Assembly: GCA_000996205.1 (NCBI GenBank)
Contig: LBYO01000001.1
Location: 3,077 to 67,076 of the forward strand
Source of the DNA: Parcubacteria group bacterium GW2011_GWA1_40_21
GTDB lineage: Bacteria; Patescibacteriota; Minisyncoccia; Phycocordibacterales; GWA1-40-21
Reading direction: 5' to 3'
DNA length: 64,000 nt
In this document: positions 12,051-12,532 of the stretch, one piece after another
Layout of the letters: each line of letters opens with the position of its first letter
How positions within the stretch are numbered: the stretch's first letter is position 1
Program-made: the position numbers and the translations under genes
The notes under the pieces: generated by a model
The model's input: only the letters and a program-made list of their open reading frames with translations
Database searches by the model: none
Told to the model about the DNA's origin: nothing

Positions 12051-12288
12051 TTTAAATAAGTAGAAAGTCCAGTCCATAAAGTTATCAAGTTTATAAAGTT
12101 AGAACAGAGAGTGATAAAAAATAATTCATCTGCGCTTTACAAACTTGATAACTTTACTTTGAATTACGAAACTCTCGTTTTCCGTCTTTGCGAGTCGGTA
12201 TTCCGACGTGGCAATCCAGAGTTTATCGCGTGTAACCATAGATTGCCACGCTTCGCTCGCAATGACGACATAAGAATATATACAGTTT

Positions 12289-12434
12289 CGTAATTCAAAG
12301 TAAAGTAATAAAAACAAGCAATCGAGCAAGTCTATTTTGGACATCCGATGTCCAAAATGCGTCGTAATTCAAAGTAAAGTAATAAAAACAAGCAATCGAG
12401 CAAGTCTATTTTGGACATCCGATGTCCAAAATGC
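12289..12434. repeat. ~73-bp tandem direct repeat x2 containing palindrome ttttggacatccgatgtccaaaa
   Basis: cgtaattcaaagtaaagtaataaaaacaagcaatcgagcaagtctattttggacatccgatgtccaaaatgc repeated head-to-tail. Confidence 0.8.
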
Positions 12435-12532
12435 GGATTCCATTCTCTATTACTTTATAACTTTAAGAACTTGATGAACTTTATAACTAAAAAAAATTTG
12501 CCAACAGGCAAAAAATATATATACTAGACCTT

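Follow-up and report, generated by a model that had tools for sequence, protein, structure and literature searches.

Between a sugar-transferase gene that ends at position 12050 and secD, which starts at 12533, both on the forward strand, lies a spacer of 482 bp (12051-12532) crowded with nested repeats. We consider this island within a stretch of 64,000 nucleotides from Parcubacteria group bacterium GW2011_GWA1_40_21 (contig LBYO01000001.1, positions 3,077 to 67,076), which we call the window; positions are counted from its first letter, and features lie on its forward strand unless stated otherwise. The G+C content of the window is 40.7%, and its rRNA genes are unlinked and carry many insertions. 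The source population belongs to the Patescibacteria (Candidate Phyla Radiation, CPR) of the Rifle groundwater metagenomes: 16 contigs, from project PRJNA268031 and samples related to it, encode an identical SecD protein, and the closest named relatives are metagenome-assembled genomes of the Patescibacteria/Paceibacteria type. The portion of the genome examined amounts to some 66 kb. Another assembly of the same population, L362, extends 2.1 kb past the left end of the window, into the 5′ part of the 23S gene. A well-known trait of CPR bacteria is the abundance of insertions in their rRNA genes, among which those of the intron type are understood. The short ones (<200 bp), devoid of any open reading frame (ORF), are reported as uncharacterised and are presumed to be intervening sequences cut by RNase III (PMC11270868).

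Four kinds of repeat are nested in the island: arms made of AT-rich units, a terminator-like stem (ACTTTGAATTACGAAAC and GTTTCGTAATTCAAAGT), an inverted pair of GC-rich repeats in its loop, and a recent 74-bp duplication. The initial annotation had the island bounded by inverted repeats. These are present, with coordinates slightly different from those given there: the left arm, ccataaagttatcaagtttataaagttagaac, spans 12073-12104 and the right arm 12454-12487, and the outer inverted repeat pairs 12071-12099 with 12452-12480 (29 nt, 79% complementary). Better inverted repeats are nested inside, 12077-12098 with 12135-12156 (22 nt, 95%) and 12145-12173 with 12284-12312 (29 nt, 93%). The first of these makes hairpin A, with an AT-rich stem of 22 bp and a loop of 36 nt. 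Its 5′ arm, which is also the left arm of the outer repeat, is an array of AAGTT-type units (ATAAAGTT ATCAAGTT TATAAAGTT, 12073-12100), and its 3′ arm an array of AACTT-type units (CTTTACAA ACTTGATA ACTTTAC, 12135-12160). A further AACTT-type array, array C (ACTTTATA ACTTTAAGA ACTTGATGA ACTTTATAAC, 12452-12488), has a sequence complementary to that of hairpin A's left arm, and forms the right arm of the outer repeat. At 12066-12075 the window has a 5-bp tandem duplication of its own, AGTCC AGTCC, where ten other aligned assemblies have one AGTCC fewer.

Hairpin B has a perfect stem of 23 bp, ACTTTACTTTGAATTACGAAACT (12151-12173) paired with AGTTTCGTAATTCAAAGTAAAGT (12284-12306), closing on a G+C-rich core of 110 nt. 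This core holds two copies of a GC-rich repeat in opposite orientations: copy 1, CGTCTTTGCGAG-TCGGTATTCCGA-CGTGGCAATC, at 12183-12216, and copy 2, CGTCATTGCGAGCGAAGCGTGGCAATC, at 12241-12267 on the reverse strand, where it reads CGTCATTGCGAG-CGAAGCG-TGGCAATC from 12267 to 12241. The tandem duplication starts within the 3′ arm of hairpin B. It is perfect and contains, as first described, an internal palindrome, but its unit measures 74 bp rather than 73: the two copies occupy 12288-12361 and 12362-12435, each with the 25-bp palindrome ATTTTGGACATCCGATGTCCAAAAT (12334-12358 and 12408-12432). The whole spacer folds with z of about -11 relative to shuffles on either strand, and that both strands fold equally well is what nested DNA palindromes would lead one to expect. 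Neither of the two ORFs of the island (72 and 60 amino acids) has a match in Pfam, and Rfam, searched with the island at E <= 10, gave only spurious hairpin matches of the miRNA type.

Outside the repeat nest, a promoter-like site for secD, TTGCCA-N16-TATACT (12498-12525), follows an A-run and stops 7 nt short of the ATG at 12533, which suggests that the secD mRNA is leaderless; the 23S promoter in L362 has a similar form, TTGACA-N17-TATACT. The secD site is conserved in two close relatives, whose SecD proteins are 89-90% identical to that of the window (window 12498-12532; L011 1870-1908; L012 3962-4000), while the island is missing from both. In L011 (90% identity) the promoter and the 16-mer GTTTCGTAATTCAAAG, which lies in the 3′ arm of hairpin B, are all that is conserved of the region, and a small ORF stands where the island would be; in L012 a different gene precedes secD. 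We therefore take the island to be a recent, lineage-specific accretion. A BLAST comparison of the GC-rich core, of the 74-bp unit and of an element designated E1 with the relatives and with metagenome loci found no match longer than 16 nt.

Within the population, by contrast with these relatives, the island was recovered with identical sequence in at least eight independent assemblies, obtained from different samples and with different assemblers. The number of 74-bp units varies: four assemblies have one copy and at least three, about half, have two. This variation, together with the absence of the island from the nearest relatives, makes it probably non-coding passenger DNA. One might ask whether the island, or its resemblance to 16S rRNA described below, could come from a chimeric join or from collapsed repeats. 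The source of the window does lack three short segments present in other assemblies, and several contigs break within the island. Yet an island reproduced in at least eight independent assemblies is not an assembly artefact, and the 16S insertions are likewise identical in at least five, so that this last of the four rival explanations that we consider is hardly credible.

A block of the island had been reported as nearly identical to a block within an expansion of the 16S gene. The resemblance is real, and it lies at 12135-12165 rather than 12147-12182, facing 19833-19867 in 16S. The exact match is 17 nt long (CTTTACAAACTTGATAA, 12135-12151 and 19833-19849), within the 3′ arm of hairpin A, and with two small gaps it grows to about 31 of 35 nt. 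Its partner in 16S belongs to an insertion that sits at the tip of helix 40 and measures about 170 nt (19714-19884), with arms made of the same units at 19733-19755, 19787-19807 and 19824-19866. In such AT-rich arms the sequence is a head-to-tail succession of units of 8-9 nt, detected both by Tandem Repeats Finder and by unit parsing, that read WAAAGTY on one strand (for instance ATAAAGTT-ATCAAGTT-TATAAAGTT) and RACTTTW on the other (AACTTTACA-AACTTGATA and similar). The units are contiguous, with no spacers between them, and the arrays are therefore not CRISPR arrays. Seven arrays of at least three units of this type were found in the window, where first-order Markov shuffles would give 0.045; a stricter test with AAAGT/ACTTT found five for 0.07 expected. 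They are located in insertions of the 23S gene (helix 45) and of the 16S gene (helices 10 and 40), in the island, which has two, and in one gene for a GT4 glycosyltransferase, where an AAAGTC array of period 9 runs in frame through the inter-domain linker (56753-56796). No array of the WAAAGTY type was found in 257 kb around secD of 34 relatives.

Each of the rRNA copies is one long hairpin that extends a native helix, with a folding z between -5 and -10. Besides the helix-40 insertion, 16S carries at the tip of helix 10 an insertion of 109 nt (18068-18176), a hairpin of AAAGTC units with arms at 18088-18119 and 18133-18153, and the 23S gene carries at the tip of helix 45 another AAAGTC-unit hairpin (497-606, arms 507-537 and 556-586). 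Four further hairpin insertions, numbered 1 to 4, are found in the 5′ part of the 23S gene in L362. Insertions 2 and 4, with AAAGT-type arms, are identical at 126 of 134 positions (94%), at different helices, and several of their few differences replace, on the sense strand, a U.G pair by C-G or a U-A pair by U.G, which fits selection on RNA pairing, small though the number of differences is. Insertions 1 and 3 (reverse strand of L362, about 896-1045 and about 1625-1770) are made of other units, CCAAAT/ATTTGG, and are identical at 117 of 154 positions; they too sit at different helix tips, one of them helix 25. The array-armed family of AAAGT type thus counts at least five rRNA members, in 16S helices 10 and 40, in 23S helix 45 and in two more 23S helices. 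Placement at helix tips follows from Rfam alignments for 16S helices 10 and 40, 23S helix 45 and three of the 5′ 23S sites, and was made by eye for the fourth (insertion 4). Intervening sequences classically occupy 23S helices 25 and 45 and 16S helix 10. Rfam recognises a group I intron only at 19115-19332, and none in the island or in the short hairpin insertions, which are too small for one.

The resemblance between these hairpins goes well beyond a shared short word. The 16S helix-10 insertion aligns with that of 23S helix 45 with a score of 59.5, where the null is 16 +/- 2.8 (z = 14), and all the AAAGT-type elements are mutually similar (z = 9-17). Hairpin A of the island is similar to four AAAGT elements, among them 23S insertion 2, the helix-40 insertion and one in a relative, with z = 7-11, and falls below 6 against hairpins of the other unit families. 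These z-scores come from mononucleotide shuffles of simple, low-complexity sequence and are generous, overstating significance, yet the pattern of which hairpin resembles which is informative. The relative in question is represented by a 23S fragment, L067, that is 82-87% identical to the window 23S over two aligned stretches. Its helix-45 insertion is a similarly designed hairpin, made of other units (TCTAAA). The site of helix 63, occupied by something else in the window, carries in L067 an AAAGT-armed hairpin collinear with the 16S helix-40 insertion of the window: 20 nt of the 5′ arm are exactly the same (GAGTTATAAAGTTGAAAGTT), a loop motif is shared and the 3′ arms match, for a score of 83 against 19.8 +/- 3.8 in shuffles. 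The 35-nt resemblance of the island to 16S rRNA is then explained by the membership of their arms in one family of array-armed hairpins. The unit vocabulary of the family is small, two members will often share a 17-mer, and the exact match hence reveals a common family rather than direct descent; the same 17-mer recurs in dozens of unrelated metagenome arrays. Thus the proposal that the island arms and the 16S expansion belong to one short-repeat family is supported, by the shared units of 8-9 nt, by collinear hairpin similarity (z of about 7-17) and by the pair of 94% identical copies. It concerns the arms; the centre of the island, whose nature was overlooked, is a different, cosmopolitan GC-rich repeat set in the loop of a terminator-like hairpin. 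That the family is also mobile, as was suggested along with it, is plausible and unproven.

Coincidence has to be weighed here, second in order among the rivals: AT-rich simple sequence might have arisen separately at each place through slippage, with a 17-nt match due to low complexity and chance. Indeed most matches to the 17-mer are chance occurrences in AT-rich DNA (in viral contigs, 66 of 67), this genome abounds in simple sequence prone to slippage, as witnessed by its other short-unit arrays (AACCTAC, ATTCGTATC, AGATTTT, CCAAAT), and the helix-45 hairpin of the relative is built of different units. Chance alone would nevertheless hardly provide seven arrays of one type, nor similarity that remains collinear through arm, loop and arm, nor two copies 94% identical over 134 nt at two different helices, nor an exact 20-mer and a common loop in 16S of the window and 23S of a relative. 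We consider this explanation, already disfavoured, to be improbable.

The same units exist far from this genome. Public metagenome contigs scanned for CTTTAYAAACTTGATAA returned at least 120 loci, and, among the matches listed, arrays of these units are present at about 30 loci (46 arrays, 209 units, with ACTTGATAA, ACTTTATAA and ACTTTACAA the commonest), 25 others fall in an unrelated conserved marine gene, and the remainder look like chance. The metagenome arrays sit in spacers, at times several within 8 kb, and reach some 15 units or more; some form inverted pairs, hence hairpins, between co-directional genes, while others keep a single orientation. Ties with CPR among the contigs that bear arrays were found only for L067 and for L111/L164, whose proteins are 55-64% identical to those of Patescibacteria loci. 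In viral contigs, a single one of the 67 matches to the 17-mer lies inside an array.

Our interpretation, with a probability of about 0.58, is that the island is a non-coding, lineage-specific nest of four kinds of repeats, whose arms belong to a family of array-armed hairpins also inserted in rRNA. Whole hairpins would be copied to new sites at the DNA level: this is what near-identical copies at different helices, a different occupant at the same site in a relative, and the absence of the island from relatives lead us to propose. Their arms would then lengthen and shorten through replication slippage, as their tandem structure and the unit differences between orthologous spacers suggest. Copies would persist only where they are harmless, that is, in spacers, at the tips of rRNA helices or in a protein linker, such as that of the glycosyltransferase with its in-frame 9-nt array. 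In rRNA, a copy would prolong the native helix into a long AU-rich duplex, which would be either an expansion segment that is tolerated or an intervening sequence that RNase III excises; by analogy with known intervening sequences, such duplexes would be the kind of substrate which that enzyme cuts. Copies in spacers are most probably passengers, whose effect as terminators or insulators would be incidental at most.

Several observations weigh against this interpretation. No variation in unit number was found in the rRNA arrays among the assemblies of the population, and ongoing slippage is therefore not shown there; the island differs among them through its 74-bp and 5-bp duplications, and not in the units of its arrays. 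No target-site duplication, no pair of empty and filled sites and no transposase (no candidate was examined) was found for any array hairpin; in particular, no consistent direct repeat flanks the island or 23S insertions 2 and 4. Within the 64-kb window, intergenic copies of the array are limited to one place, and the z-scores, as said above, are generous. Finally, two diverged metagenome contigs, L050 and L121, both hold an ACTT-unit array 7-8 nt before the start codon of an orthologous gene (73% identical, with a tRNA-binding domain), with arrays that differ in the number and order of their units and with upstream DNA that is otherwise unrelated. Of all the observations, this one hints most strongly that some of the spacer arrays may be maintained by a function.

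Such a case leads to the foremost rival explanation, where the arrays are functional elements acting in cis as DNA, either cooperative sites for a regulator or a nucleoid protein, or promoter-proximal sequences; the island would regulate secD and the rRNA copies would be secondary. Tandem operators of 7-8 bp are known for repressors of the ribbon-helix-helix type. Besides the position retained in L050 and L121, the units are sharply defined and common to many contigs of differing G+C content, the arrays adjoin start or stop codons, array C immediately precedes the secD promoter, and the units include hexamers resembling -35 boxes (TTGACA, TTGATA, TTTACA). Against this, the orientation of arrays with respect to genes is roughly even, about 50:50, the closest relatives keep the secD promoter without any island, and the arrays are here almost restricted to rRNA genes, as paired arms at helix tips, which fits tolerance in an RNA and does not fit DNA binding. 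We see a functional role in cis as unlikely, if the least unlikely of the rivals. The more specific idea that the arrays are themselves promoters was rejected as the main explanation: a period of 9 nt sets -35 and -10 boxes 12 or 21 nt apart, never 17.

The centre of hairpin B belongs to quite another world. In the window the GC-rich repeat is confined to the island, whereas a 26-mer of copy 2 is found exactly in unrelated IMG/VR contigs, and a scan of that resource for GTCATTGCGAG-N(4-20)-GCAATC gave at least 206 copies in at least 120 contigs (loci L165-L284), some of them single, others in tandem runs (L232) or in inverted pairs (L186-L191). The consensus is GTCATTGCGAG-hairpin-GCAATC(CAGAG). 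Its inner segment is a perfect small hairpin whose sequence changes from copy to copy (GGCGAAGCC, CCCCGACTTGTCGGGG, GCAGTGCGCACACTGC, and TCGGTATTCCGA in the island), and this covariation across hundreds of copies points to a selected structure. No Rfam family was found for it, its scan giving, like that of element E1, only spurious miRNA-type hairpins, and the genes around it in IMG/VR contigs, called crudely, display no clear pattern. As for the stem of hairpin B, it shares 15 of 17 positions with a simple hairpin of terminator-like form that precedes the 23S promoter in L362 (ACTTTGAATGACAAAAC-GAGA-GTTTCGTCATTCAAAGT, then TTTTCT), so that hairpin B looks like a hairpin of this sort, ‘empty’ in L362, with a G+C-rich pair inserted in its loop.

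These features could also be read as those of a structured small RNA, or of an RNA element acting in cis (a processing site, an attenuator or a cluster of terminators), with hairpin B, 170 nt long and GC-rich in its three-way core, as the likeliest candidate. Folding is very stable (z = -9 for 12140-12316), the inner hairpin covaries, the stem has its terminator-like counterpart elsewhere in the genome, and a weak promoter-like site is found on the minus strand (12304-12275). To this it must be opposed that even at E <= 10 no Rfam family appears, that the core is missing in relatives, that copy number is variable, that neither palindrome is followed by a U-tract, and that the two strands fold as well as each other, as DNA palindromes should. 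A functional RNA, third among the rivals, seems to us slightly less probable still than coincidence.

Other sequences of the window recall the stem of hairpin B. Two palindromic elements of 109 nt, 92% identical (48354-48462 and 52769-52876), each start at most 10 nt after a stop codon, and both terminate in 11-mers (GAATTACGAAA / TTTCGTAATTC) that the stem also contains. A module upstream of two glycosyltransferase genes (56008-56056 and 57455-57543) consists of a hairpin, CTGTGGGTATCAGATACCCACAG, followed by AATTCAAAGTAAAATAA, which resembles the 3′ arm of hairpin B.

How do the array-armed hairpins compare with known systems? The rRNA intervening sequences of bacteria, cut out by RNase III, are documented in 23S helices 9, 25 and 45 of Salmonella, Leptospira, Campylobacter and Coxiella (PMC4990558). 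Like them, the present insertions are AT-rich extended stem-loops at helix tips (helices 25 and 45 and 16S helix 10 included), of sporadic distribution, with different occupants of a given site in relatives; intervening sequences are regarded as selfish or neutral. In contrast, the stems are here made of tandem units of 8-9 nt, near-identical copies occupy several helices of the same rRNA genes, and the unit family extends to an intergenic spacer, to a protein linker and to the spacers of other contigs, the island itself being outside rRNA. A second comparison is with the Rickettsia palindromic elements (RPE) and repeats resembling miniature inverted-repeat transposable elements (MITE), which are palindromic and non-autonomous and insert into genes. 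Shared with them are the hairpin repeats of 100-190 nt, in multiple copies per genome, located in spacers as well as within RNA genes and, in frame, within protein genes; their presence likewise differs among relatives. Unlike them, no target-site duplication and no terminal repeat of fixed sequence was found at the array hairpins: their arms, being inverted arrays, do amount to terminal inverted repeats, but these are variable arrays of short units instead of a conserved sequence.

The growth of eukaryotic rRNA expansion segments by slippage, compensatory in some cases, and their ‘cryptic simplicity’ form a concept of Hancock and Dover, cited in PMC2048585. There also, helix tips are extended by short repeated motifs, the arms stay complementary, and motifs are common to different segments and spacers of one genome; the present case differs in being bacterial, with single-copy rRNA genes, and in its near-identical whole hairpins, which suggest copy-and-paste beyond slippage alone. 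Repetitive extragenic palindromes (REP) and the mosaic elements that they form (BIME), finally, are likewise short palindromic intergenic repeats clustered after stop codons, and the GTCATTGCGAG...GCAATC module comes in tandem or inverted clusters as BIMEs do. It has, however, no GTAG-type head, and no RAYT gene turned up, none being searched for; the module is not species-specific, being conserved between contigs that differ widely, and the AT-rich arrays have no counterpart in REP.

Intervening sequences, palindromic insertion elements and expansion segments built by slippage are thus all already known. As far as we found, their combination (array-armed hairpins, several copies in 16S and 23S, units shared with spacer and coding arrays) is not described in the literature, and no description quoting the sequence of either repeat family was found in the papers searched. 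It is tempting, though this goes further than we would wager on, to see in the short ORF-less rRNA insertions of CPR a new class of non-autonomous array-armed hairpin elements, neither decayed introns nor ad hoc expansions, that spread between hairpin tips, those of rRNA helices and of terminator-like stems in spacers, and then grow by slippage of their units. If so, a repeat family would be actively seeding rRNA expansion segments in bacteria. What the locus offers is a concrete anatomy for these insertions and a plausible origin, that of a few repeat-built hairpin families copied among helix tips with units shared with spacers. Should this prove true, the growth of eukaryotic expansion segments through slippage would have its parallel in bacteria, and a simple sequence signature would be at hand to find such elements and to mask them in surveys of CPR 16S and 23S genes. 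Separately, the locus has exposed a very widespread structured repeat, the GC-rich module of hairpin B, that has no family in Rfam.

The rest of the window calls for a few remarks. Relative to other assemblies of the population, it is short of 71 nt near 6203 and 34 nt near 11124 (both present in three assemblies), and of 71 nt after 19586 (present in five). The second of these deletions splits a 449-amino-acid sugar-transferase gene into two ORFs, and the third takes out a conserved part of 16S, around the 970 region; all three are probably assembly errors in the source of the window. The 16S gene appears to run past 20239, with an intron that contains a LAGLIDADG ORF (about 20302-20946), then a 3′ exon at about 21151-21195 where helix 45 is intact. 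Its 3′ tail is GGATTATTTC and not GGATCACCTCCTT, hence no CCUCC anti-Shine-Dalgarno sequence is evident, and nearby genes are without a Shine-Dalgarno motif. A tRNA-Ile(aat) called by ARAGORN at 5470-5544 has no Rfam support and may be spurious. An interruption of about 2.4 kb (2597-4985) in the 23S gene, which resumes near 4985, holds two LAGLIDADG ORFs, at 2621-3226 and at 4277-4768; at the 3′ edge of this interruption stands a 9-nt array, ATTCGTATC, repeated 4.9 times (4928-4971). A second family of short-unit arrays, consistent in its position, is made of the heptamers AACCTAC / CCTACAA, found 4-10 nt upstream of three forward-strand gene starts (5904-5936, 10649-10685 and 13929-13962, the last with an inverted partner at 13889-13905), and again between the terminator and the 23S promoter on the reverse strand of L362 (about 375-400).

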